A DNA stretch of 64,000 nucleotides from Endomicrobiia bacterium (GCA_039630545.1 JBCNUU010000001.1:128001-192000), one strand, 5' to 3'. Positions 3,445 to 41,135 are shown, numbered from the stretch's first letter. Numbers and translations are program-made. Notes: generated from the letters alone by a model not told the origin.

Positions 3445-4551
3445 ATGGAAATGGCAAAGGTAGAAATAAAAAATCTTAAAAAAAACTTTGGTAACAATTC
3501 TGTATTAAAAGATATTAATCTCACAATAGAAGATAAAGAATTCTGTGTTTTGCTGGGTCCTTCTGGTTGTGGAAAGACTACTTTGTTGAGAATAATAGCA
3601 GGATTAGAAGAACCTACTGAGGGAGAAGTATGGATAGGAGAAAAAAATGTAACTGATTTTGAGCCAAAAGATAGAGATATTGCTATGGTTTTTCAAAACT
3701 ACGCTTTGTATCCTCATATGAGTGTTTATGACAATATGTCCTTTGGTTTAAAAATTAAAGGATACTTAAAAGAAGAAATAGACCAGAGAGTCAATTCTGC
3801 AGCAGAAATTCTTGGAATAAAGAATTTTCTTACTCGTCTACCAAAGGCCTTATCAGGTGGACAAAGACAACGTGTTGCTGTAGGAAGAGCTATAGTAAGA
3901 AAGCCAAAGGTATTTTTGTTCGACGAACCACTTTCAAACTTAGATGCAAAACTTAGAGTTGAGATGCGTGCAGAACTTAAGAAGCTTCATGAGCGACTTC
4001 AGGCTACTATCATTTATGTGACTCACGATCAAGTTGAAGCAATGACATTAGGTGACAAAATTGTGGTCATGAAAGATGGAATTATTCAACAAATAGGTAG
4101 TCCTCTTGAGATTTACAATAAACCTGCCAATAAGTTTGTAGCAGGTTTTATAGGTTCTCCTCCAATGAATTTTATAAGCGGCAAAATAATAAAAAAAGAC
4201 AACAGTTTATATTTTGACGAAGGAAGTTTTAGTATAAAAATTCCAGAAGATATGGAGAATAGTTTATATAACTATATAGAAAAAGAAGTAATTTTAGGGA
4301 TAAGACCTGAAGATATATATGATAGAATTTATTCACCAACAGGCGAAATAGAAAATGTGATAGTTGCTACAGTAAATATAGTTGAGTTGTTAGGAAATGT
4401 TAAACATCTTCATCTTATTTCAGGAAACAGTAGTTTTGTGTGCATAGTTAAATCATCCAATCAAGCTGAAGAAGGACAGACAATAGAAGTAGTTTTTGAT
4501 GTATCTAAAATACACATTTTTGATAAAACTACAGAAGAAGCTATAGTATGA
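3445..4551 (+). CDS. Carbohydrate ABC transporter ATP-binding protein (MalK/MsmX/UgpC family)
   Basis: GPSGCGKT, LSGGQRQR, FLFDEPLSNLD, C-terminal TOBE region. Confidence 0.96.
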   Translation: MEMAKVEIKNLKKNFGNNSVLKDINLTIEDKEFCVLLGPSGCGKTTLLRIIAGLEEPTEGEVWIGEKNVTDFEPKDRDIAMVFQNYALYPHMSVYDNMSFGLKIKGYLKEEIDQRVNSAAEILGIKNFLTRLPKALSGGQRQRVAVGRAIVRKPKVFLFDEPLSNLDAKLRVEMRAELKKLHERLQATIIYVTHDQVEAMTLGDKIVVMKDGIIQQIGSPLEIYNKPANKFVAGFIGSPPMNFISGKIIKKDNSLYFDEGSFSIKIPEDMENSLYNYIEKEVILGIRPEDIYDRIYSPTGEIENVIVATVNIVELLGNVKHLHLISGNSSFVCIVKSSNQAEEGQTIEVVFDVSKIHIFDKTTEEAIV

Positions 4552-6152
4552 CAAACATTCTAGAAAAATTTAAAAAATTAAAACTTTTAGCCATTTTTAT
4601 ATTCAATGTCTTAATTGCTGGTTATATTAAACTCAAAAGTTTATATTCTTTCCCTCAACCTGTATGGGCGACTAAATCGTTTATTTTATTTGTGGAGATT
4701 TTTATTGTAGTGGTCTTTATAAGTGTGCTGCTTTTGATAATATTTCATTATTTAAGAAAGATTATTATATTTTTGCTTCATAAATATCAAGAAGGAGAAG
4801 AAAATGTTAATGAGATAAAGCACTTAATGGAAAAGATTTCAAAACAAACGAAATTTCTTAACGAAAAGCTTCAAGAAAATAATCTTCTTAATAAAGTAAT
4901 ATTTGAAATGAATCAAACTATGGAATTAGATAAAGTTTTGAAGATAATTTTAGAAAGTATCTGCAGCTATCTTAATTTTGATAGAGCGGTAATACTTATT
5001 TTAAATGAAAAAAACATGTGCTTAGAACCAGCATATGGAGAAAATATAGATAAAGAAAAACTACAGGAACTCTTTATATCTCTTAGAGATGATGATTTCT
5101 TTTTGGTAAAAATTTTATATAAAAACACTCCTTTAATAATAAAAAAAGTTCCAACAACTCAATACAGTTATTTTAAAGATATTACCAAGCAAAATACTTT
5201 GATTTGTGTCCCTTTGCAAGCAAAAAAGAAAACCGTAGGAATGCTTTTAGCTGACACATCTAAATCTCAAAGGCAACTTACAGAGAAAGATCTTCGTCTC
5301 CTTATAAATTTTTCGAATCAAGCTTCATTGGCAATAGAGAATGCGAAATTATTTGAAACAGAAAAAAAATTTAAAGAGAAGCTTCAAGAAGAAGTTGAGA
5401 TTGCCTTAAAAAAACTTCAAGAAGCTCAGAAACAACTTATTCAATCAGAAAAACTTGCTGCTTTAGGTGAAATGGCGGCAGTTGTGAGTCATGAAGTAAG
5501 AAATCCGTTATCCACCATCCTTATGTCTGCGCAGGTATTAGATGAAGAAGTAAAAGATGAAAAATACAGAAAATATATAAATTATATTATCTCTGAAGTA
5601 AAACGCTTAAATAAAGTGGTTTCAGAAATTTTGACTTTTTCACGACTTCCAAAACTGGAACTTAAGCTTTCAGATATGCATAAATTAATAGATGAAGTGA
5701 TAAGTTTTCTTGAAATAAGTGATTTTATAAAATATGACATTAAATGTTATAAAGAATATAAAGCAGAAATTTCAGAGATCATGGTGGATGTAGATCAGAT
5801 AAAACAGGTCCTGTTTAACATAATTCAAAATGCCTGCCATTTTATGTTAAACAAAAACATAAGAAATTTGCACATCACAACTGAAAATAAAAATGGATTA
5901 TTTGTTTTAAAAATAAAAGATACAGGTACAGGTATTCCACCTGAAAATTTAAACAAAATATTTGAACCATTTTTTACTACAAAAACAAAAGGAACAGGGT
6001 TAGGACTTACCATTTCTAAAAATATAATAGAGTCTCACAGAGGAAAAATAGAAGTGGAAAGTGTGCTTGGAGAAGGAACTACTTTTAATATTTTTTTACC
6101 TATAAAACTATCAGAAATAAAAAATGAAAAAAATTTTAATAGTGGAAGATGA
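4548..6152 (+). CDS. Membrane GAF-domain sensor histidine kinase
   Basis: Two N-terminal TM helices, GAF ending ASLAIENAKLF, H-box SHEVRNPL, N box NIIQNA, DTGTGI, FFTTK, GTGLGL. Confidence 0.93.
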   Translation: MTNILEKFKKLKLLAIFIFNVLIAGYIKLKSLYSFPQPVWATKSFILFVEIFIVVVFISVLLLIIFHYLRKIIIFLLHKYQEGEENVNEIKHLMEKISKQTKFLNEKLQENNLLNKVIFEMNQTMELDKVLKIILESICSYLNFDRAVILILNEKNMCLEPAYGENIDKEKLQELFISLRDDDFFLVKILYKNTPLIIKKVPTTQYSYFKDITKQNTLICVPLQAKKKTVGMLLADTSKSQRQLTEKDLRLLINFSNQASLAIENAKLFETEKKFKEKLQEEVEIALKKLQEAQKQLIQSEKLAALGEMAAVVSHEVRNPLSTILMSAQVLDEEVKDEKYRKYINYIISEVKRLNKVVSEILTFSRLPKLELKLSDMHKLIDEVISFLEISDFIKYDIKCYKEYKAEISEIMVDVDQIKQVLFNIIQNACHFMLNKNIRNLHITTENKNGLFVLKIKDTGTGIPPENLNKIFEPFFTTKTKGTGLGLTISKNIIESHRGKIEVESVLGEGTTFNIFLPIKLSEIKNEKNFNSGR

Positions 6153-6483
6153 AGAATTACTTTTGGATGCTTTCAGCAGTGCGTTAAAAAAAAGGAATTA
6201 CGATGTTGTTGGTATCTCTAATGGTAAAGACGCCATAGATTATGTTAAAGACAACAGTGTTGATCTTATAATTTTAGATATAAAACTTCCCGATATGAGT
6301 GGTTTAGAGGTGTTAGAAAACATAAGAAAACTACTGCCAAATGTGCCTATAATAATGTGTACAGCATATGATAGTTTTAAAACCGATTATCAGATATGGG
6401 CAAACAAGGTTTCTGACTATGTTGTAAAACCTATTGTTTTAGAAGATATAGAAGAAAAAATCAGAAAAATTTTTAGTAAGTAA
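6124..6483 (+). CDS. Single-domain response regulator (CheY-like)
   Basis: ILIVEDE, LDIKLPD (phospho-Asp), CTAY, VKP; no output domain. Confidence 0.93.
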   Translation: MKKILIVEDEELLLDAFSSALKKRNYDVVGISNGKDAIDYVKDNSVDLIILDIKLPDMSGLEVLENIRKLLPNVPIIMCTAYDSFKTDYQIWANKVSDYVVKPIVLEDIEEKIRKIFSK

Positions 6484-6493
6484 TCAATTATGT

Positions 6494-7582
6494 ATGTTGA
6501 ATTTGTTTTTATTTATTGTAATAATCATTCAGATCGTAATATTTGCGTATTTTCTCTATCTAAATAAAAAAAATAAACAAGAAATAATTTCTTCCTTTAA
6601 AGAAAGTCTGGAAAATATATTAAAAATAACCGAGACACTTCGTAGTTCTCTTGACTTAGAAAAAATCTTTATAGAGATACTTAATATTTTTTCAAAAAAC
6701 TTTGGATATAAGAAGGTATTTATCTATTTGGTAGAAAAAACTCCAGATCATCTGGAATTCAAATGTATTGCGTGTCCTGGTCTTGTCTCAGTGGAAGGAA
6801 TTGGTATTTATAGTTTTATAATTGATGATGTAAAAAATCCGATTTTTCAGATAGTTGAGAATTATAATGAAATTGAGCTTACTTCTTACCTTTTGCCTCA
6901 ACTAAAAGAGAAACTTAAATTTACCGAAATGTTTTTGTTGCCTATAATATTAAAGGATACTTTAGAAGGTTTTATAATAACTGAAAAACCTATAAATTCT
7001 CAATTTATTTTTCCTTTAAGAATTTTTGCCAACGAATGTGGAGTAGCTTTAGAAAATGCAAGACTTTTTAAAAAAATTCAGGAGATGTCTATCACTGATG
7101 CCCTTACTGGAGTCTACAATAGAAGATATTTAGAAAAAAAACTTCCAGAAGAAATTGAGCTGGCAAAAAGATACAAAAGTTTTCTATCAATAGGTATTTT
7201 AGACATAGATGATTTTAAACATTACAATGATACCAATGGGCATCTTTTAGGGGATGAGTGTCTTAAAAAAGTTGCAGAGGTTGTTACTTCCACTTTAAGA
7301 AGTGGTGATATAGTGTTTAGATATGGGGGAGAAGAATTTATTGTAGTTTTACCTGCCACAGACAAATCTGGTGCTTTTATTGCCTGTGAGAAAATAAGAA
7401 AAAACATAGAAAGTTATCCATTTGAAAATAGAGATAAACAACCTTTAGGAAAAATTACAGTAAGTATTGGTATTTCTGTGTATCCTGTAGATGCTCAGGA
7501 GGAAACCTCACTTATAAAAATAGCAGACGAAAATCTTTATAGAGCAAAAAAATCGGGTAAAAACAGAGTTTGTTGTTTATAA
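6494..7582 (+). CDS. Membrane-anchored GAF-GGDEF diguanylate cyclase
   Basis: N-terminal TM, GAF-like region, TDALTG, DIDDFK..ND..GH..GD, RSGD I-site, RYGGEEF. Confidence 0.93.
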   Translation: MLNLFLFIVIIIQIVIFAYFLYLNKKNKQEIISSFKESLENILKITETLRSSLDLEKIFIEILNIFSKNFGYKKVFIYLVEKTPDHLEFKCIACPGLVSVEGIGIYSFIIDDVKNPIFQIVENYNEIELTSYLLPQLKEKLKFTEMFLLPIILKDTLEGFIITEKPINSQFIFPLRIFANECGVALENARLFKKIQEMSITDALTGVYNRRYLEKKLPEEIELAKRYKSFLSIGILDIDDFKHYNDTNGHLLGDECLKKVAEVVTSTLRSGDIVFRYGGEEFIVVLPATDKSGAFIACEKIRKNIESYPFENRDKQPLGKITVSIGISVYPVDAQEETSLIKIADENLYRAKKSGKNRVCCL

Positions 7583-7585
7583 TTT

Positions 7586-8659
7586 ATGAAAAAAGAAATA
7601 AAATTAAACATTAACCAGCAATTAAAGCCTTCAGTTTTGCCTTTTCTCAAAATTAAACTTACCGGTAAACTTTCTTTAAAAGAAGAAGAAGTTGTGTCTT
7701 TAATTAAACAAATAGAAGAAACAGATGATTTTCAGAAATTGTTAGAATTAAAGATAATAAAGCGCACTCCATTTCCATCATTTCATGTCTCTATAAAACC
7801 TTTATATGAATATAAAGAAGATTTGTTTGAGATATTATCTTTTTCACTGCCAGATATTAATAGTATTATTCAGCAAAATCCTGATGTTGTGGAAACTATA
7901 AGAAAAATTGGTGAGGAAAATTATAAAAAATTTTTTTTAGGTTACGAAAGTTACTCCTTTGAAGAGATTTCAAAATTTTTAGGAATTTCTTGTTTAGAGG
8001 TAAAAAAAATTTTTGAATTTACAAACAATATATTTATTCATACTGAAATAAAATTACCAGATGGTAGTTTAAAAAAAGAATTAGTCGCAAAAAAATATAC
8101 TAGAATAGCGAAGGTAGAACTTTCAGGAAATAATATTTTAATAACATATTTTAGCCCATTTATGTTTCGGGGTGTTTATGTTGTAGATTATGAGAAATTT
8201 AACAATTTTATAAAAGATCTTCCATCCTCAAAGAAAAAATACCTAAAACAGATAGTAAAAGAAATAGAGCTATTAGAGATAAAAAAAAGAACTTTTCACA
8301 GATTATTGGAAGAAATTCTTTTTATCCAGAAAGAATTTATTAAAACAGAAAAAGAAAACGACCTTAAAATCTGTACTCAAAAGGATTTAGCAACAAAAAT
8401 TGGTGTTTCTCCTTCTACAATTTGCAGGTTAATAAAAGAACGATCTATAATTTTGCCTTCAGATAGAGAATATCCTCTGAATTATTTTTTTGTTAACAAA
8501 AAAAGAATAGCCCTTATTTATATTTCTGAAATTTTAAAAAATAATAAGAATATAAAAGATAAAAAAATCAAAGAAATTCTTTTTGAAAAATTGAAAATTA
8601 AGTATTCTATTAGAAGCATAAATTATTATAGAAATCTTTTAAAAAATAGAAATGTATAA
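7586..8659 (+). CDS. Divergent, compact sigma-54 (RpoN)-like protein
   Basis: HTH CTQKDLATKIGVSPSTICR followed by LP...YPLNYFF, then DKKIKEIL...SIRSINYYR at the RpoN-box position; Gln/Leu-containing N-terminus resembles region I. Confidence 0.7.
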   Translation: MKKEIKLNINQQLKPSVLPFLKIKLTGKLSLKEEEVVSLIKQIEETDDFQKLLELKIIKRTPFPSFHVSIKPLYEYKEDLFEILSFSLPDINSIIQQNPDVVETIRKIGEENYKKFFLGYESYSFEEISKFLGISCLEVKKIFEFTNNIFIHTEIKLPDGSLKKELVAKKYTRIAKVELSGNNILITYFSPFMFRGVYVVDYEKFNNFIKDLPSSKKKYLKQIVKEIELLEIKKRTFHRLLEEILFIQKEFIKTEKENDLKICTQKDLATKIGVSPSTICRLIKERSIILPSDREYPLNYFFVNKKRIALIYISEILKNNKNIKDKKIKEILFEKLKIKYSIRSINYYRNLLKNRNV

Positions 8660-32449: not shown

Positions 32450-32499
32450 ATGAGATTATTATACATTTATCATATCATATATATTTAAAATTCAACAAT

Positions 32500-33800
32500 T
32501 ACAAACTTTTAAGCAAACTATAAAAGAAGATGATTTTTAAAAACACCAAAAAGAAAGGAAATCTAAAAGTATTCCTTGCCAGTCTTTTTTAGAGCAAAAG
32601 GACTTACCGGTATAATCAACTAAGCAAAAGAAATAGTTGCAGCAATAAAACATAATTATAATAATACTATGTTGCTTTATAGCTGTTATTCTACTGTTGA
32701 GAGTTATGCATATGCCCATAAGTGGAAATTTAGCTAAAAAAATAGTTTTTTTTGACTCTTTTTAAGAGTGATTTTTTTTTAATAATATTAAAATGACAAA
32801 AAAATATATCAAACCTCAAATTACTTCCAGGAAAGTTTTATTTCCAAATGATACATCTGTTGTTTAGTTAAATGAAGTTTACTATAAAAATGTAATCTGA
32901 AAACTTTATCATCTTTTAAGCTGCTCGATCGTTGGATTTTATTTTATTATCATGTCATTATAAGGTTTATTTTTAAAATAGATAGATTTTTAAAACGTTC
33001 GCTGATGAAGTAAATAAAAAACTGATAACTTTCATAAAAATTTTTTTCTTTCGGTTTTATGTTTTAAAATAAATAAACAGGTTGTTTTTAACATTAGTCT
33101 TCATTTTTTAAAAATGTTTAGGTTTTTCTGCAACAAGAATAAAAACGGTAGAGTATACAATTTGGTGTAGGTTTTTCCACAGGTATAATATAAGGAGCAG
33201 ACCATACTGTGTATGTGCTCTATGTACTAAAAGACACTACAACTTCAGCCCTACCTTAACCTAAATTTTTCACAAAAAGATGTGTTAGTTTTTTGAAATG
33301 AAGTTAGTTTTGAGTTGTATGCTTTTTTTGATACACGGAGTTGTGTAAAAAAATAACATGAATTACAAATCTTAACTTCTGTAACATTTAAACATCTTCA
33401 TTATTCAACATCAACAGATGTGATAAACTATACTACCACATTATTATCCTAAAGAAGATACTGCTGGTGTGTAAAAACAAAGAATTATGCAGAAAAGTTT
33501 TCTTTGTAGTTTTCTGCGAGAAAATTCTTGATTGATACGCAACCAGCAATGTTATGTTATTTGTTTGGATTCAGATACAGGTTTATTTAGAATGGTAGTT
33601 TTTCAAGATTTAGACTGAGAACTTACAACCGAGATAAAACTAACAAGTTTGGTTTATAAATTTTTACCTATCAACTTAAGCTTAATAAATCATCGTTAAA
33701 ATTAGATGAAGAAATAAAAAATTTTAAAAATAAGAAAGACTTAGAATGTTTTGGCATTAAAAAACTGCCTCGTTGTGCAGTATTTAGATACCATATTTTC
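32500..33800 (-). pseudogene. Probable heavily decayed coding DNA, family unidentified
   Basis: No ORF longer than about 60 aa; minus-strand protein-like fragments broken by stops (FIAATISFA*LIIPVSPFALKKTG; GRAEVVVSFST*STYTVWSAPYIIP). Confidence 0.35.
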
Positions 33801-33915
33801 ACAAAGTAGATATATGTATAAAACTTTTTATTTTTAATTTAAATAATATAAAAAACTTCAATCAAGTTTGTGTTGATTTTTTATTAAATTTATTGTATTT
33901 TTATAAATTCTGCCT

Positions 33916-33989
33916 CGGGGCGTAGCTCAGGTGGCTAGAGCACTCGTTTGGGGTGCGAGAGGTCAGCGGTTCAAGTCCGCTCGCCCCGA
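33916..33989 (+). tRNA. tRNA-Pro (anticodon GGG)
   Basis: CGGGGCG acceptor stem, CTCGT-TTGGGGT-GCGAG anticodon arm, GGTTCAAGTCC T-arm; CCA not encoded. Confidence 0.96.
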
Positions 33990-34004
33990 GATTATCTCAA
34001 CAGT

Positions 34005-34463
34005 ATGATAATAGCAATTGCATCGGATCATGCTGGGTATAGGATTAAGAAAGAACTGGTTGAATTATTATCAAAAGAGTACAAGATAATAGATTTTGGA
34101 ACTTTTTCAGAAGAATCGTGTGATTATCCTGACTATGTAAAAAAAGTAGTTTTGGCTATAAGAAATAAAGAAGCAGATAGAGGTATACTTTTATGTAGCA
34201 GTGGAGAAGGAGTATGTATTGTGGCCAATAAATTTAAAGGCATAATGGCTGGTTTGTGTTATTCAGAAGAAGTAGCAGGTCTTTTATCTTCTCATAACTT
34301 TACAAATGTGATATGTTTTCCTACAAGAATAAAAAAAGAAATAACATCTGAGATGCTTTATAAGTGGGTAAAAATATGGTTGAATACTCCAAATTCAGAT
34401 GAAGAAAGGCATTTAAGAAGAATAAGAAAAATTAAAGAAATTGAGGAGGAAAATTTTAAATGA
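34005..34463 (+). CDS. rpiB: Ribose-5-phosphate isomerase B (RpiB/LacA/LacB family)
   Basis: IAIASDHAG, DYPDY, GILLCSSGEG...ANK, HN..NV, RH.RR; start moved to 34005 because 33948 lies inside the tRNA. Confidence 0.92.
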   Translation: MIIAIASDHAGYRIKKELVELLSKEYKIIDFGTFSEESCDYPDYVKKVVLAIRNKEADRGILLCSSGEGVCIVANKFKGIMAGLCYSEEVAGLLSSHNFTNVICFPTRIKKEITSEMLYKWVKIWLNTPNSDEERHLRRIRKIKEIEEENFK

Positions 34464-34864
34464 AATATTTTTCTGTGATTTTTTTGCTGTCTTTTACGAC
34501 TTGTCAAGTATTGTATTCTCAAGTTCATAAGACTATAGACGAAGCAATAGATTTAATAAATAAAAATAAATATGATGAAGCAATAGAAATTTTAGAAACA
34601 AATGGCAAAGAAAACGATATTCTTATAGCTATAGCTTACTTAGGAAAAAAAGATTTCAAAACAGCTAAAGCTTTTGCTTTGCAGTACTGGTTTAACAATG
34701 AAAATGATGTGTTAGCTAACTATGTTCTTGCTTTAATTTCAGAAGAACTTAAAGAGTATAATCTTGCTTTAATGTACTGGTCTGCAGTTTTAAAAAACGC
34801 AAAAGTACCTGTTCTAAAACAGCTTGCAAAAAAGCACATAGAAGTACTCAATAAATTAAAATGA
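34460..34864 (+). CDS. Exported TPR-like protein
   Basis: Signal peptide; helical repeats (YDEAIEIL, ANYVLALISE, ALMYW). Confidence 0.7.
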   Translation: MKYFSVIFLLSFTTCQVLYSQVHKTIDEAIDLINKNKYDEAIEILETNGKENDILIAIAYLGKKDFKTAKAFALQYWFNNENDVLANYVLALISEELKEYNLALMYWSAVLKNAKVPVLKQLAKKHIEVLNKLK

Positions 34865-35427
34865 AAAAATCGAAATTCTATTTTATGTTTTCTATCCTTG
34901 CTATCCAGTGTTGTGTAACTCCAAAGGGGGTTTTCCATAAAGATTTTGACATAGACAAACTTACAACGATATTTGTAGAAGAATTCAAGCCCTACAATGG
35001 TTATCCTTCCAGCGGAGAAATGATAAGAGATTTAATAATTCAACATCTTTTAAGAAGAAAATTTGTAGTAAAAGATTTAAATACAGAAGATGTAAAGTAT
35101 ATATTGTCAGGTTCTGTAACCAAGTTTTATCCTGAAAAAAGATATTTAGTTTACATTGGAGAGGAAGGTAAAGATAACATAATAGTAGGAAGCACATTAA
35201 CAGAAATAAGTGGAAGTTATGTTTATAAAATTTCATCTGCGTTTGGCCTTAAAAATGCAGAGATAGTAGCAACTAACTCAGTAGTAGGAGTGTCAGCAAA
35301 ACTTATAGAAAAAGATACAGGTAAAATTTTATGGAGCAGTTCTTTTACATACGAAGCTTTAACTGTAGAAACCGCAGCAGATGTTGTAGTTAACTATTTA
35401 GTTACATCTTTAACTGGCAAAAAATAA
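34861..35427 (+). CDS. Putative lipoprotein (CsgG/DUF799-like alpha/beta fold)
   Basis: Lipobox-like AIQC; ILSGSVT and VGVSAKLIEKDTGKILWS patterns. Confidence 0.65.
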   Translation: MKKSKFYFMFSILAIQCCVTPKGVFHKDFDIDKLTTIFVEEFKPYNGYPSSGEMIRDLIIQHLLRRKFVVKDLNTEDVKYILSGSVTKFYPEKRYLVYIGEEGKDNIIVGSTLTEISGSYVYKISSAFGLKNAEIVATNSVVGVSAKLIEKDTGKILWSSSFTYEALTVETAADVVVNYLVTSLTGKK

Positions 35428-35439
35428 CATAGATATTAA

Positions 35440-36072
35440 ATGGAGATTGCTAAATTTATAGAATACACTAATTTAAAGCCATACGCTACAGAAAAAGACA
35501 TAATAAAACTTTGTAAAGAAGCTATAAGATATGGATTTTTTGGAGTATGTGTTAATCCTGTATATGTGAAATTGTGTAAAGAAATCCTTAAAAACACCAA
35601 TGTTAGAATATGTAGTGTGGTGGGGTTTCCTTTGGGTTGTAATACTACAAAAGTGAAGGTGTTGGAATCCCAGCAGGTAATTTGTGATGGTGCTGATGAG
35701 ATAGATATGGTAATAAACCTTAGTGCTTTAAAATCAGGTAATTATGAAGAAGTTTACAAAGACATAAGCTTTGTAAGGAAAGCTACTGAAGGAAAAATAC
35801 TGAAAGTGATATTAGAAGTTTGTTACCTTACTAAAAAAGAAAAGGTTATAGCAGTTGAAATAGCAAAAAAGGCAAAAGCAGATTTTATAAAAACTTCAAC
35901 AGGATTTGGAACAAGCGGAGCAAATGTAGAAGATATTAAATTAATTAAATCCATAGTAAAAGAAAACATAGGAATAAAAGCAGCAGGGGGAATAAAAGAT
36001 AAAAATACAGCTTTAAAAATGATAAAAGCAGGAGCAGATCGTATAGGAACTTCATCTTTAATTAAGGACTGA
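35440..36072 (+). CDS. deoC: Deoxyribose-phosphate aldolase
   Basis: VCVNP, VGFPLG, GADEIDMV, KVILE, FIKTSTG, IKAAGGI, RIGTS. Confidence 0.97.
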   Translation: MEIAKFIEYTNLKPYATEKDIIKLCKEAIRYGFFGVCVNPVYVKLCKEILKNTNVRICSVVGFPLGCNTTKVKVLESQQVICDGADEIDMVINLSALKSGNYEEVYKDISFVRKATEGKILKVILEVCYLTKKEKVIAVEIAKKAKADFIKTSTGFGTSGANVEDIKLIKSIVKENIGIKAAGGIKDKNTALKMIKAGADRIGTSSLIKD

Positions 36073-36079
36073 ATTATTT

Positions 36080-37513
36080 ATGATCCATAAATGGGAGATA
36101 AAATCATTTAAAGAAGCTAATAAGGTAGAATATAGAATAAGATTAAAAGCACAGGAAGAAGATTTAGTAGAACTTAAAAATTTTCTTAGAGAAAACAAAA
36201 TATAAATCTCAAAAGAATTTTCTTCTTTGAGCACAGAGTTTAATTATGTGTTATATGTAAGCAAAGTAGCTCAAGAAAAAATAAGTAAATTATCACTATT
36301 GCTTAAAAATCTATGTAATGATGGTAGTTTTATAGATATAGAGGAAGCTTCTGTTAAAGATGATGATGGTTTAAAATATCTCTATGAGATTTTAAGAGGT
36401 ATGTATGAATTGCCGATAGTAGGACAGCAGAAAGAGTTAAAAGAGGAATATTATGATATTCTAAAAGAGGCAAGTAAAATGATTTCTTCGGTTACAGATT
36501 TTAGTCAGCTCATAAAGATACTTTTTAAAATTTCGCATCAATTAAACTATGACAAAACAGTTATACTTCTTAGAGACGAAGATATGTTTAGTTTTGTTGA
36601 TGGATATGGAATAGACAAAAGCATTGCTGGTTTATATAAGTTAGATTTGAGCGTTGGGGAGATGATAAAAGATTTAGGAAGGATTGTCCCCAAAGAAAAA
36701 ATTCCTATAGAGATTTTAAATTCACAAGAATTATTTAAGATATTTCCAGTAGGTATAATAATTTCTTTAGTTTCTGAAAAAGAAACAGAAGGATTTATAT
36801 TGTTAAATGAAAAATCTCATATTATGAAAAATTTTAAAACCGATTATGATTTATTAGAAATTATTTCTTCTCAGATTTCTTCAGTTATTAAGAATTTTCG
36901 TCTTTCTAAAGAAGCAATTACTGATCCATTAACTGGTACATATAGGTATAACTATTTTGTAAAAAGATTAAATGAAGAAATTTACAGAAGTATACTATAC
37001 AAACATCCTTTAAGTTTATTGATGATAGATGTAGACAATTTTAAAACAATAAATGATACATATGGACACCAAATAGGAAATGTTGTGTTAAGAGAAATAG
37101 GTAAAGTTTTAAAAGAAAATGTTAGAATAAGTGATATAGTGTGTAGATATGGCGGTGATGAATTTGCTATAATTTTTCCAGAAACTAATATAGATGAAGC
37201 ATTGAGATCTGCAAAAATATTAAAAGACCATATAAATAACGTAGTTAAAATTACAAATGAATTAAAGCAAAAAATAGAAAGAATTGGAATAGAAATTATT
37301 CCTAAAATTATTATTTCTGATATTGAACCGAAGGTTACAGCTTCTATGGGTTTAGCTTTTATTACTGGGAAAGAAGAAAGAAAAATTACTTCAGAAGAGT
37401 TTATTAATTATGCTGATAAAGCTTTATATTTATCTAAAATAGAAGGTAAAAATAAAATAACCATATGGAATGAAGAAGAAATTATAAAATTTTTAAATGG
37501 AGAGATCTACTAA
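36080..37513 (+). CDS. Diguanylate cyclase (unknown N-terminal domain + GAF-like + GGDEF), interrupted by an in-frame TAA at 36203-36205
   Basis: ATG 36080 (7 nt after the deoC stop) is in frame with ORF 36227; TDPLTG, DVDNFK.IND.YGH, RISD I-site, RYGGDEF. Confidence 0.8.
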
Positions 37514-38603
37514 AGCTATGAAACCTGCAGATATAGACCAACTGTTACGGTTGATGGTTAAGAAAGGAATTTCTGATATTCATTTTAAAGCGAATTCTTC
37601 GCCACTAATTAGAATAAATGGTAAAATAGTATCTTCCAGATATGAAAAACTTTCTAAAGAAACAATAGAAAATATAGCATATGAACTGATGAATGAAGAA
37701 CAAAGAAAAACTTTTGAAAGAGAATACGAACTGGATTTTGCTTATTCAATAGAAGGATTCGCCAGATTTAGAATAAATGTTTATAAACAAAAAAATACAA
37801 TAGCTTTGACATTAAGAGTTATACCGTTAGAAATCAAGTCATTTAAAGAGTTAAATTTACCAGAAGAAGTGTTAATAAAACTTGCTCACGAACCACGTGG
37901 TTTGATACTTATAGCTGGTATAACAGGGTCTGGTAAGACAACCACTTTAAACTCAATGTTAAATTACATCAATGAAAATTTTGAATATAATATTATCACC
38001 ATAGAAGATCCTATAGAATATTATCACGTAGATAAAAAATCATCCATTTCACAAAGGGAAATAGGTTCCGATACTAAATCATTTAAAAATGCTCTTAAAT
38101 ATGTATTAAGACAAGATCCTGATGTTGTAGTAATAGGAGAGATGCGTGATTTTGAAGCAATATCTGCAGGAATAACAGCAGCAGAGACTGGGCATCTTGT
38201 ACTTTCTACAATTCATACTATTGATGCTGTTCAGACAATTGACAGGATAATAGATAGTTATCCTCCTCATCAACAAAAGCAAGCACGTATACAACTTTCA
38301 AATGTTTTGAAAGGAATTGTAGCACAAAGACTATGTAATTTAAAAGATGGTTCCGGAAGAATTCCAGCTGTTGAGGTGCTTATAGGAACTTCCTTCGTTA
38401 AAAAACTTATTTTAGAAAATAAAACGCAGGAAATATATAAAGCAATGGAAGCAGGAGAGTATTATATGATGAATACTTTTGACCAATCATTACTTAAACT
38501 ATACAACTCAGGTCTTATTACATTTGACGAAGCTCTGGATAAAGCTACAAATCCAGAAGATTTACAGTTAAAACTCCGTGGAATTTCTCAAACAAGAGGT
38601 TGA
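37497..38603 (+). CDS. pilT: PilT/PilU-family type IV pilus retraction ATPase
   Basis: SDIH, RFRINVY, GITGSGKTT, EDPIE, QREIG.DT, LRQDPD..GEMRD, AETGHLV.STIHT; start may be 37518. Confidence 0.93.
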   Translation: MERSTKAMKPADIDQLLRLMVKKGISDIHFKANSSPLIRINGKIVSSRYEKLSKETIENIAYELMNEEQRKTFEREYELDFAYSIEGFARFRINVYKQKNTIALTLRVIPLEIKSFKELNLPEEVLIKLAHEPRGLILIAGITGSGKTTTLNSMLNYINENFEYNIITIEDPIEYYHVDKKSSISQREIGSDTKSFKNALKYVLRQDPDVVVIGEMRDFEAISAGITAAETGHLVLSTIHTIDAVQTIDRIIDSYPPHQQKQARIQLSNVLKGIVAQRLCNLKDGSGRIPAVEVLIGTSFVKKLILENKTQEIYKAMEAGEYYMMNTFDQSLLKLYNSGLITFDEALDKATNPEDLQLKLRGISQTRG

Positions 38604-39337
38604 TTATGCTGCAGGATAAAGACAAAAAAGTAGACGAAATACTGGAAGAATTAAAAAATGTATTAGATTCTATTACTAAAAAAACTCAGACGAATACTCA
38701 ACCATTGCAAGAAGACAGTTTCAAAAAGATAGAAGAAATGAAAAATATATTGAAATCTAAAGAAAAAGAAGAAATTAAACTTGAAGAGAAAAAAGAAGCA
38801 ACACCTACCGAGAAGGTAGACAATGTTAATAAATTAAAAACTTCGTTAACTATCTTCTCTGAAACGACTAAAGAAGAGAAAACAGAACAAAAAATATCTT
38901 CCACAGCTCCAGAGAAACCATCTACTGAAGTGATGCCTCCTGAGGAAGCTGATAAAAAAGAGGGTATTGTAATAAAAACTATGGTGCTGGTTCCATTAGC
39001 TTTACAGGATGCCAAAGATGAGTTTTTTAATAATGTTAATTCTACTTTAAAACGGGTAAGTAAAAAGAATATAGAATTTAAAGAAAGTATCTGTGTAAGT
39101 TATAGTTCTTTAACCAAGGATATTTTTTTACAATATAGTTTAGTAGTTGAAAAAATCAGAAACAATAACATAAATGCCTTAATTTTTATAGTTAATGAAA
39201 ATACCTTAGAAGTAGAAGAGTTTATTAAAAAAATATCATCCTTTGTTATCTTAGCAAAAAGTATAACAATGAAAGAATTAAAAATGAGATCTACATATTT
39301 AGATCTTTCTATAGATTTACTTTTAACTATAAAATAA
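38600..39337 (+). CDS. Hypothetical protein: N-terminal helices, low-complexity linker, C-terminal alpha/beta domain shared with the DnaA paralog
   Basis: Overlaps the pilT stop; aa ~122-245 align by eye with aa ~472-598 of the next ORF. Confidence 0.8.
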
Positions 39338-39338
39338 C

Positions 39339-41135
39339 ATGATTTCTACATGGGATTTAAAATTTTTACCAACAGATAAATATCCTAATAGGTATAGATT
39401 AAGGGTTAAGTGTTCTGCAGAAGATTTGGAAGAGTTATGTAATTTTCTTAAAGAAGACCTAAACTTAGACATATCACCTCCTTTTAATGTTTTATCTTCA
39501 AATTATAATATAGGAATTTTTATATATGAATTACCACTAGAAACTAAAAATAAACTTGTAGATAAACTATTTTCTATTTGTAAAAGTGGTACAGTAGATG
39601 AAGGAATTTCTTCCAAAGAAGAAAATCAAGAAGAGAAATCTTCTAAAAAAGAATCTTTTCCTGACGAACTAAGCAGTGTCCTTGCCGATTTGGTTGAACA
39701 ACTAAGTTCAAAAGCAGTTGAAGAAGATAGCTCATCCAAGCAAAATATCTTCAATGGGATGCCTTTGAATCCTAAATATACTTTTGAAAATTTTGTAGTA
39801 GGTGCAAGCAATAGATTTACTCATGCTGCTGCTTTAGCAGTTGCTGAAAATCCAGGAAAAGCATACAATCCCTTATTTATATATGGTGGTGTTGGTTTAG
39901 GTAAAACACATCTTATGCAGGCAATAGGACATTATATAAAAAAGAAACGTCCATTACTAAAAGTAGTTTATATCCCATCTGATAAGTTCGTTACTCAGGT
40001 AATAGAAGCTATCCGTTCCGGTAATATTCAAATGTTAAGGGATGCTTATATGAGGGTAGATGTATTATTAGTGGATGATGTTCAGTTTATGGCTAGTTCA
40101 GAATCTACACAAGAAGAGTTTTTTCATATTTTCAACACTTTGCATCAGTATGGAAAACAAATTGTTCTTACAAGTGACAGACCTCCCAAACTTTTATCCA
40201 CACTTGAGGATAGATTACGTTCTAGGTTTGAATGGGGACTTATTGCAGATATAAAATCACCTTCTTTAGAAACAAGGGTAGCTATTCTTAAAAAGAAAGG
40301 AGAAGAAGAAAAGGTTAATGTTGATGATAATATTCTTTTATATATTGCATCAAAATTGAAATCAAATATAAGAGAACTTGAAGGTTTCTTAAAAAGAATA
40401 ACAGCATATGCTCATTTAAACAATGTGCCTATAAATATGGAGCTGGTTAAACAGTTAATGAGCGAACTTTTACCAGAAGAAGAACTCACAGAAGAAGAAA
40501 AAGCATTATCTGAAACAAGAAAAGAAAAAATAGAAGAAAAATCTAAAGAAGAACCCAAAGTTTCAGTAGCGCAAGAAGCTGCTTCTAAGAATAAACAAAA
40601 AGAACCTCAAACTATTTCTCTTGAAGAAATATACAGTTCAACACAACCTCCACTTCAACCTCAAACTCCACAGGTTTCTTCCGAAACAGTTGCTTCAAGA
40701 TCATCTGCACCAGATGAACAGAAATTGTATCAAGAGTATGAAGCAGAAACAAATGTAATTGAGGCTGCATTTTTCTATCCTGAAGGTAAAACTGAAGAAC
40801 TTAATATAGTAAAACAAAAATTTACTGAAGTTATTAAAAAACATAATTTAAAATATAAATTGGCTACAGCTTTTGATAGACCATACATGTTAGAAAATAT
40901 AAACTATAGATTATTTATAGAACTATGTAAGACAAACAAAGTAAATATATGTATAGTTATATCACCTCCGCCCAATAGTAATCTCTCTGCAGAAGAATTC
41001 TATAATAATCTTTTACCATTAGCAGAATCAGAAGGTATTAGATTGGAATACATTAACTGGAAGGAAATAACAAAAGAATACAGATACCTAAATCTCGCCT
41101 TGGATATAGCCCTATCAAAATTTAAGATGTTTTAG
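39339..41135 (+). CDS. DnaA-family AAA+ ATPase paralog lacking DnaA domains I and IV
   Basis: [68 protein letters not shown]; no RQIAMYL or GRDHTTV domain IV motifs. Confidence 0.9.

Follow-up and report, generated by a model that had tools for sequence, protein, structure and literature searches.

A DnaA-derived ATPase encoded beside a dedicated PilT forms the core of a conserved, apparently undescribed cassette of Elusimicrobiota

Why should a DnaA-type ATPase be encoded next to a pilus retraction motor? Four adjacent genes at positions 36,080 to 41,135 of a 64,000-nucleotide stretch of DNA from an Endomicrobiia bacterium (GCA_039630545.1), referred to here as the window, raise this question. 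An earlier reading made from the DNA alone (the sequence-only reading) proposed that a paralogue of the replication initiator DnaA became a nucleotide-dependent scaffold that binds a diguanylate cyclase through one shared domain, A, and an adaptor through another, B, and that the cluster could link pilus retraction or DNA uptake to cyclic di-GMP (c-di-GMP) or to the replication state. Exploring related loci of the phylum Elusimicrobiota, we found that the core of the cassette is pilT followed by a helix-linker-B adaptor gene and an A-DnaA AAA+-B ATPase gene, and that the A-cyclase fusion is a family-restricted add-on, not part of the core. That the ATPase and the adaptor form an ATP-dependent scaffold relaying lineage-specific signals to a dedicated PilT, probably for the uptake of DNA as food, is a proposal that we judge evenly balanced. 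The cassette itself is a real system that is apparently undescribed.

The four genes lie on one strand and are tightly packed, as the sequence-only reading had it: the first two junctions overlap by 17 and 4 nucleotides and the last two genes are 1 nucleotide apart. Matches to Pfam and NCBIfam bore out the GGDEF domain of gene 1, the PilT-family domain of gene 2 and the DnaA-type AAA+ domain of gene 4, while gene 3 had zero matches in either database. Comparison with genome G003 revealed purifying selection on all four genes (ratio of nonsynonymous to synonymous substitution rates, dN/dS, 0.03-0.25), with values of 0.03 for gene 2 and 0.09 for gene 4. The cassette proteins are all predicted to be soluble, matching DNA came from hot-spring metagenomes, and a promoter and terminator scan stayed at the level of shuffled sequence (49 vs 48.3). 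The features of the locus are as follows.

36080..37513, plus strand: gene 1, A-(GAF)-GGDEF diguanylate cyclase, with an in-frame TAA at 36203-36205; a family-restricted accessory gene
36080..36337, plus strand: domain A copy of the cyclase, broken at codon 42
37497..38603, plus strand: gene 2, cassette-specific PilT/PilU-family ATPase (TIGR01420, 465 bits, cut-off 319)
38600..39337, plus strand: gene 3, putative adaptor with an amphipathic helix h (ILEELKNVL), a low-complexity linker and domain B
38954..39334, plus strand: domain B of gene 3, adaptor type (B-B alignment)
39339..41135, plus strand: gene 4, A - DnaA-type AAA+ - linker - B (Pfam and NCBIfam matches and residue mapping)
39339..39602, plus strand: domain A of gene 4, predicted eIF1/SUI1/YciH- or ACT-like alpha/beta fold (AlphaFold2 predicted local distance difference test, pLDDT, 93)
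39765..40478, plus strand: DnaA AAA+ core of gene 4, residues 143-380 (residue mapping on PDB entry 8btg)
40740..41126, plus strand: domain B of gene 4, ATPase type, predicted Argonaute/PIWI MID-like fold (AlphaFold2 pLDDT 94)
33948..36072, plus strand: rpiB (named by reading the sequence, not by a family scan), a TPR protein, a lipoprotein and deoC, upstream of the cassette and in one gene run with it

Synteny was analyzed in 59 loci, which were picked for diversity and not at random; loci with short flanks were dropped from each denominator. The order pilT-hypothetical gene-DnaA-like gene proved to be conserved across the phylum, with pilT at most 4 genes upstream of the ATPase gene in 38 of 53 loci, gene 3 or pilT directly upstream of it in 47/58, and a kinase or GAF protein gene within 2 genes downstream in 33/57. 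The usual order reads tpiA-(pduL)-(PilZ)-rpiB-(TPR-lipoprotein)-deoC-pilT, followed by [A]-h-B in one or two copies, [A]-AAA-B, a GAF histidine kinase and (receiver), and transketolase or nucleoside-salvage genes often come after the cassette. Upstream deoC or rpiB was found in 46 of 52 loci, tpiA in 33/52, and TPR and lipoprotein genes in 21/52 each; related loci carried a bacterial microcompartment shell gene (14/52), PduL (16/52) or Aldh (9/52), and the downstream genes included recJ (3/55), a nucleoside phosphorylase (10/55) and a phosphopentomutase-like gene (7/55). The window's whole family has no kinase in the locus and keeps pilT, gene 3 and gene 4. In five loci with microcompartment genes (L103, L107, L109, L120 and L136), deoC encodes about 490-500 amino acids, with a fused N-terminus of about 270 amino acids that has a weak flavoprotein match.

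Domain B was detected in 135 of 401 Elusimicrobiota genomes with an early 37-row profile and domain A in 188/401 with a 67-row profile, and the ATPase paralogue, full-length or truncated by a contig end, was present in 19 of 41 close genomes and in 0/20 of family f4. At E <=0.001, B was found in just 223 proteins among 1.84 billion representatives. The 163 B proteins that were examined comprised B alone or with the helix (86), A-AAA-B (36), A-B (21), AAA-B (18), A-A-AAA-B (1) and receiver-B (1), and all database matches of A with a named organism were labelled Elusimicrobiota or Endomicrobia.

The ATPase encoded by gene 4 aligned with the 446-residue DnaA of 8btg at E 2e-95 and scored 369 bits against TIGR00362. 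Because this passes the cut-off of 344, databases label proteins of this type DnaA, and their deposited name is 'chromosomal replication initiator DnaA'. A canonical DnaA of 454 amino acids with domains I, III and IV is encoded elsewhere in the genome, on contig C82 (L121:6311-7675), and gene 4 is therefore a DnaA paralogue separate from the genome's own initiator, in line with the sequence-only reading. The separate dnaA-dnaN locus which that reading implied was recovered in part: the canonical dnaA is flanked by rsmA, mnmE, jag, yidC and rnpA on one side and by a trpD-like gene on the other, and dnaN was not among the scanned neighbours. In a small f4 genome dnaA lies in two separated pieces and the secretin match contains stops (G023:C1:301-615 and 6929-7288). 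Trees of the AAA+ domain placed the paralogues apart from the canonical DnaAs of Elusimicrobiota and of other bacteria (Shimodaira-Hasegawa-like approximate likelihood-ratio test, SH-aLRT, 99); these trees were unrooted with a narrow outgroup, the first built without every second or third row and the second from 41 of 153 AAA rows. A long branch (0.82) leads to the canonical DnaA of the window's family.

Gene 4 retains Walker A K189, Walker B D246/D247, sensor I D280, the arginine finger R296 and sensor II R345, and S254 stands in place of K222 of Bacillus subtilis. Mapping 46 core paralogues onto the 8btg DnaA in B. subtilis numbering (L118 and L164, with truncated or split AAA domains, were excluded) showed Walker B, sensor I, the R264 finger and sensor II in 46/46 each and the Walker A lysine in 45/46; I190 (42/46) and T225 (41/46) are kept and R202 is largely kept. 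K222 was found in 0/46 core paralogues, 40 of which carry Ser, vs 23/23 canonical DnaAs of Elusimicrobiota and 70/73 other canonical ones, and the K222 loop is acidic in the paralogues. Neither DnaA domain I (PF11638; canonical DnaA as control, 1.5e-8) nor domain IV (PF08299; the genome's canonical DnaA, 2e-26), which binds DnaA boxes, gave a Pfam match in gene 4, and its C-terminus models as a fold other than domain IV. Hda carries an N-terminal sliding-clamp binding motif; gene 4 reached 106.7 bits against the Hda model TIGR03420 (cut-off 194.8), and no clamp motif was seen by eye in its translation, no search having been aimed at the motif. In a study of B. subtilis, a K222S variant bound ATP and formed oligomers but unwound DNA poorly, 25% vs 65% (bioRxiv 2022.03.18.484894). 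The AAA+ core thus looks competent for the ATP-dependent oligomerisation that the sequence-only reading had expected, and gene 4 looks like an oligomer-competent, DNA-blind DnaA. The suggested link to the replication state was weakened, because every DNA-binding element is lost. Paralogues of family f20 (L149:5837-9337; L150:5625-8840) are 1,070-1,170 amino acids long, with a linker of about 600-700 amino acids and a degenerate AAA+ domain, and these two loci have neither pilT nor gene 3.

The two repeats reported in the sequence-only reading withstood shuffling: the A-A alignment scored 123 (z 15.8) and the B-B alignment 85 (z 7.9), scores reached by 0/1000 shuffles in each case, while A aligned with B at chance level (96/1000 shuffles). 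Neither domain had a convincing Pfam match; sequence searches of Pfam and PDB gave at best designed Rossmann-type proteins and Argonaute MID at E of about 0.5-1, A had no usable match in the ESM Atlas, and a viral fold search gave nothing at E <=0.001. In a comparison of the B model with 48,161 chains by VIA, the top 18 matches all belonged to the Argonaute/PIWI family (Z 14.5 to 10.5). The best two (Z 14.5 and 14.4) superposed about 120 of 129 residues (119 for Z 14.5) at a root-mean-square deviation (rmsd) of 2.2-2.3 Å with 10-14% identity, and the first non-Argonaute fold had a Z of 10.5. ESM Atlas matches to Piwi/ArgoMid (0.76-0.79) stand at the level of leads, and hhalign of B with the MID of one clade of short prokaryotic Argonautes (short pAgo) gave E 0.002 with a probability of just 14%. 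The lumazine synthase fold, ranked first for B by Foldseek (template-modelling score 0.62, rmsd 4.3), was set aside because its VIA Z was 10.1 vs 14.5 for MID.

The resemblance of B to Argonaute MID lies in a four-stranded Rossmann-like fold and does not extend to the guide-binding site. YKQTNK is the 5'-phosphate-binding motif of Argonaute MID, according to PMC6299218. This motif is not kept in B, where the Tyr occurs in 14/105 and the Gln in 27/105 sequences and the common residues at the second position do not include Lys; these positions were mapped through the weak profile alignment to one short-pAgo clade, and the register may be off by 1-2 residues. A basic loop is kept (K33 in 71/105, K36 in 74/105), and the last helix bears an acidic D/E in 98/105 within Y-x-N/D-x-x-x-D/E. 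B stands alone at the C-terminus of both proteins, and no PF02171 (PIWI) match was found in the genome that the window comes from, G000. Another genome (L185:1033-3415, G222) encodes a short prokaryotic Argonaute, preceded by a partner gene, that gave the sole above-cut-off PIWI match in 251 genomes of the phylum, and at an unrelated locus (L163:5637-6398) a B domain follows a hydrophobic N-terminus. For domain A, VIA matches were eIF1 (Z 9.0), YciH (7.6) and aspartokinase (7.5), the last presumably through the ACT domains of that enzyme; Foldseek gave E 0.03 or worse, and 0/27 members had a SUI1 Pfam match. A microcompartment shell domain was dropped as a candidate for A, since it appeared as a lone weak Foldseek row (E 0.07) and was absent among the 50 VIA matches listed.

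The motor gene of the cassette forms an orthologue group of its own, with 56-93% identity within the group and at most 51% to other PilTs, and Walker A, Walker B and the His box are conserved across 26 gene 2 orthologues. We predict from these features that gene 2 encodes a dedicated PilT/PilU retraction ATPase. Genome G000 has three PilT-like genes including gene 2, tandem PilB genes and a long secretin. The third PilT-like gene immediately follows ftsZ in a cell-division cluster (L122:914-2050, contig C2). At L123:4933-9499 (contig C56) two tandem PilB genes with MshEN domains precede a pilT; MshEN is a c-di-GMP-binding domain, and the main pilus motor may therefore have its own c-di-GMP input. 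Family f4 lacks the PilT orthologue (0/20) as well as A and B (0/89). Secretin frames are about 570-690 amino acids long in most cassette genomes and reach just 443 in f4, whose short secretin probably reflects a single loss within a group of related genomes.

Gene 3 is related to gene 4 and lacks the AAA+ domain, and in other lineages it carries A too. The amphipathic pattern of helix h was present in 29 of 46 cases and in 0.9% of shuffles. One such protein (P0106) is fused to two receiver domains, giving REC-REC-h-B. Gene 3 stays with pilT at L148, where the locus has no ATPase paralogue, and with the ATPase at L140, L141 and L159, where pilT is absent; an adaptor role fits, since gene 3 stays with either partner alone. 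The B protein of L148:5796-7654 lies outside a full cassette, as pilT plus h-B. A complex was predicted from four chains (PilT, gene 4 A, gene 4 B and the gene 3 partner), each with a 26-row alignment. It gave weak support for a gene 3-PilT contact: the score was 0.48 and that of the best of three controls, which included replacement of PilT, 0.00. The runs agreed to 35% or more, and the partner's pLDDT was 62 or higher. In calibration the score mark was met by 116/157 solved and 2/215 mismatched pairs, and at scores of 0.60 or lower by just 18 solved pairs plus both mismatches. This model raises a little the odds that gene 3 contacts PilT. With PilT replaced, gene 3 scored 0.00 with gene 4 A and B, which lends no support to contacts between genes 3 and 4 and by the calibration is no evidence against binding.

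The cyclase gene did not conform to the intact A-GAF-GGDEF protein and core member of the sequence-only reading. Its codon 42 (36203-36205) is TAA, in the middle of domain A, where four orthologues have GAA, AAA, CTG or CAG. The contigs of three public runs, representing two samples of one study that is perhaps the source of this assembly, show no alternative letter at the TAA, and an assembly error is an unlikely source of the stop. Against G003, dN/dS was 0.07 for the cyclase A and 0.11 for the remainder of the gene; the stop is recent, because the broken A still shows this low value. The downstream frame, 428 amino acids from the TTG at 36227, keeps GGDEF and RxxD (in translation YGGDEF and RISD; PF00990 E 3.7e-37), and a restart of translation at this TTG is possible. 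Pfam matched the GGDEF domain alone, and the GAF domain is indicated by an NCBIfam DgcA match over residues 75-413 and by clustering with GAF-GGDEF proteins. A-GGDEF occurs in 4/52 loci and, on another contig, in one further genome, all five genomes being of the window's family; in L103 and L107 of the same family deoC and pilT are in place with no cyclase in between. Among 76 A-bearing database matches (45 A-AAA-B, 28 A-B, 2 A-AAA and 1 A alone) none was fused to GGDEF. The cyclase A shares a short insertion with the ATPase A of its own family and branches among ATPase-type A domains. The idea of a c-di-GMP input held as far as such genes recur in the cassette, as PilZ (8/52) and as GAF-GGDEF without A (3/52), and failed for the A-cyclase as a core part.

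How might these parts work together? We infer the binding and functional steps of the following mechanism. In an ancient Elusimicrobiota cassette, a DnaA copy would have been turned into a protein scaffold that serves a dedicated retraction ATPase. In an ATP-dependent manner, gene 4 would assemble into DnaA-like oligomers whose flexible linkers present many A and B domains, and gene 3 would act as an adaptor docked on both the PilT paralogue and this scaffold. The sensor input would vary by lineage, usually being a membrane GAF histidine kinase, alone or together with a receiver, and sometimes PilZ or GAF-GGDEF; in the window's family it would be a cyclase with a captured copy of A, broken in this strain. 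The output would be pilus retraction that is switched or localised. Its likeliest purpose would be the uptake of DNA as food, given the deoxyribose, pentose-phosphate and nucleoside-salvage genes around the cassette, and surface motility would be the alternative. The loss of DNA contacts from a DnaA copy, its two added domains and its conserved place beside a small partner and a dedicated motor suggest an undescribed switch for pili, not replication. A bolder version, possible but somewhat doubtful in our view, is that the DnaA ATP filament was co-opted before Elusimicrobiota radiated, yielding a cytoplasmic type IV pilus-base machine that sets MID-like domains and an adaptor on the retraction motor and couples sensing, retraction and DNA scavenging.

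Several observations speak against the scaffold-adaptor-PilT proposal. The ATPase occurs without a nearby pilT in 15/53 loci, several of them with a kinase, and genome G031 has the ATPase and lacks the orthologous PilT. A is genuinely absent from the ATPase at L128, L133, L140-L144, L158 and L159. Oligomerisation cannot be universal, and neither it nor hydrolysis is needed throughout, because 11 paralogues of more distant families have largely lost the arginine finger, sensor I and sensor II, with Walker A and B remaining. The joint loss of PilT, A and B in f4 is probably one event among kin; deoC is kept in 11 of 20 cassette-free f4 genomes, and the metabolic neighbours may be hitch-hikers. 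So weak a complex score is more often wrong than right unless the contact was likely beforehand, and a four-chain job is unlike the calibration. The non-random choice of loci bears on all synteny counts.

Other explanations of the same genes have to be weighed against this proposal. Gene 4 could regulate replication, either as an unwinding-dead subunit together with DnaA or in the manner of Hda, tying initiation to kinase or c-di-GMP signals and to pilus state. An AAA+ core unusually near true DnaA would agree with this, as would the kept oligomer residues and the K222S subunit, which oligomerises without unwinding. We consider such a role unlikely, given that domains I and IV are missing, that the Hda score is 107 vs a cut-off of 195, that the paralogues fall on a separate side of the tree from their hosts' DnaA, though their own family's DnaA is long-branched, and that the surrounding genes concern pili, signalling and sugar phosphates, not replication. 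It is rather unlikely that the ATPase is a kinase-linked signalling scaffold unrelated to pili, with pilT and the salvage genes just inherited neighbours. The kinase does follow the ATPase in 33/57 loci, including the pilT-less L025, L116, L131, L132, L140 and L141 and further pilT-less loci (L145, L146, L159 and L161), and the REC-REC-h-B fusion points the same way; yet the window's whole family dispenses with the kinase while keeping pilT, gene 3 and gene 4, strong constraint acts on the PilT, a dedicated orthologue, and the predicted complex score, weak as it is, depended on PilT.

A nucleic-acid machine, in which the MID-like B and the eIF1-like A bind pilus-imported single-stranded DNA (ssDNA), RNA or nucleotides and the ATPase passes them to salvage enzymes, seems improbable to us. 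The Argonaute-family matches of B together with the ESM Atlas leads, the eIF1/YciH matches of A, the basic loop with K33 and K36, and the downstream recJ, nucleoside phosphorylase and phosphopentomutase-like genes are all compatible with it, but YKQTNK is not kept, the short-pAgo MID match is at the low probability given above, the genome has no PIWI domain and the ssDNA lysine is lost from the ATPase. Finally, the cyclase could be a core member tethered by A-A contacts, so that c-di-GMP made at the scaffold controls PilT. Purifying selection acted on its A until the stop arose, GGDEF and RxxD are both preserved, the cassette repeatedly includes PilZ or other GAF-GGDEF genes, and the cyclase A looks like a captured targeting module because of the shared insertion and its place in the tree. 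Restriction to five genomes of one family, absence from other members, the break in this strain and the lack of any GGDEF fusion among the A-bearing database matches make this very improbable for the cassette at large; a cyclase-centred model is plausible as a family-specific add-on.

Two other regions of the window stood out. Between dapA and tRNA-Pro, positions 32450-33914 (1,465 bp) contain no open reading frame (ORF) longer than 60 amino acids and no Rfam match. The stretch has no second copy in the genome and resembles no ORF of the loci compared; in relatives its place is taken by a short gap or by unrelated genes, and it is possibly a decayed insertion at the tRNA. Positions 4548-8659 encode three proteins in a row: a GAF histidine kinase, one with a GGDEF domain and one of 357 amino acids whose sole match is a sigma-54 DNA-binding domain.

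The cassette fails membership in the DnaA, Hda and Argonaute families while built with parts of each. Gene 4 shares with DnaA the AAA+ domains IIIa/b, Walker A and B, the sensors, the arginine finger and, for the most part, I190, R202 and T225, and differs in having domains I and IV replaced by A and B, in the loss of K222 and in its pilus and signalling gene context. Hda, DnaC/DnaI, IstB and other initiator-clade ATPases are known to act in replication or transposition. Hda, DnaC/DnaI and IstB likewise have a DnaA-like AAA+ without the origin-binding helix-turn-helix, whereas gene 4 scores far under the Hda cut-off, is much nearer DnaA and bears two extra domains. Regulators of type IV pilus motors include FimX-PilZ-PilB, MglA-SgmX and Pil-Chp. 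The cassette resembles them in the proposed combination of a small adaptor, a nucleotide switch and a signal input on a pilus ATPase, and in its TPR and PilZ genes; none of these regulators is known to use a DnaA-derived AAA+ or the A and B domains. SPU microcompartment loci, predicted to serve DNA catabolism according to the accessible part of PMC8156839, match many cassette loci in the upstream deoC, rpiB, PduL, aldehyde dehydrogenase and shell genes. The window has only rpiB and deoC of this set, and the pilT-ATPase cassette is not among the SPU description in that part of the paper. We found no description of the cassette in the accessible parts of the literature, and its genes could be among those tabulated in supplements to papers on Elusimicrobiota genomes.

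The 'DnaA' labels carried by the paralogues can mislead origin prediction and marker-gene work in Elusimicrobiota. Domain B would represent a bacterial MID-fold family outside Argonautes and without a PIWI partner, which bears on the origin of the Argonaute MID domain. The phylum-wide DnaA copy would be a natural version of the unwinding-defective K222S variant made in the laboratory. If the proposal is true, a DnaA-clade ATPase would be active outside replication and transposition, and the DnaA filament would have been reused in Elusimicrobiota as a signalling scaffold, which would be a novel mode of type IV pilus motor control.

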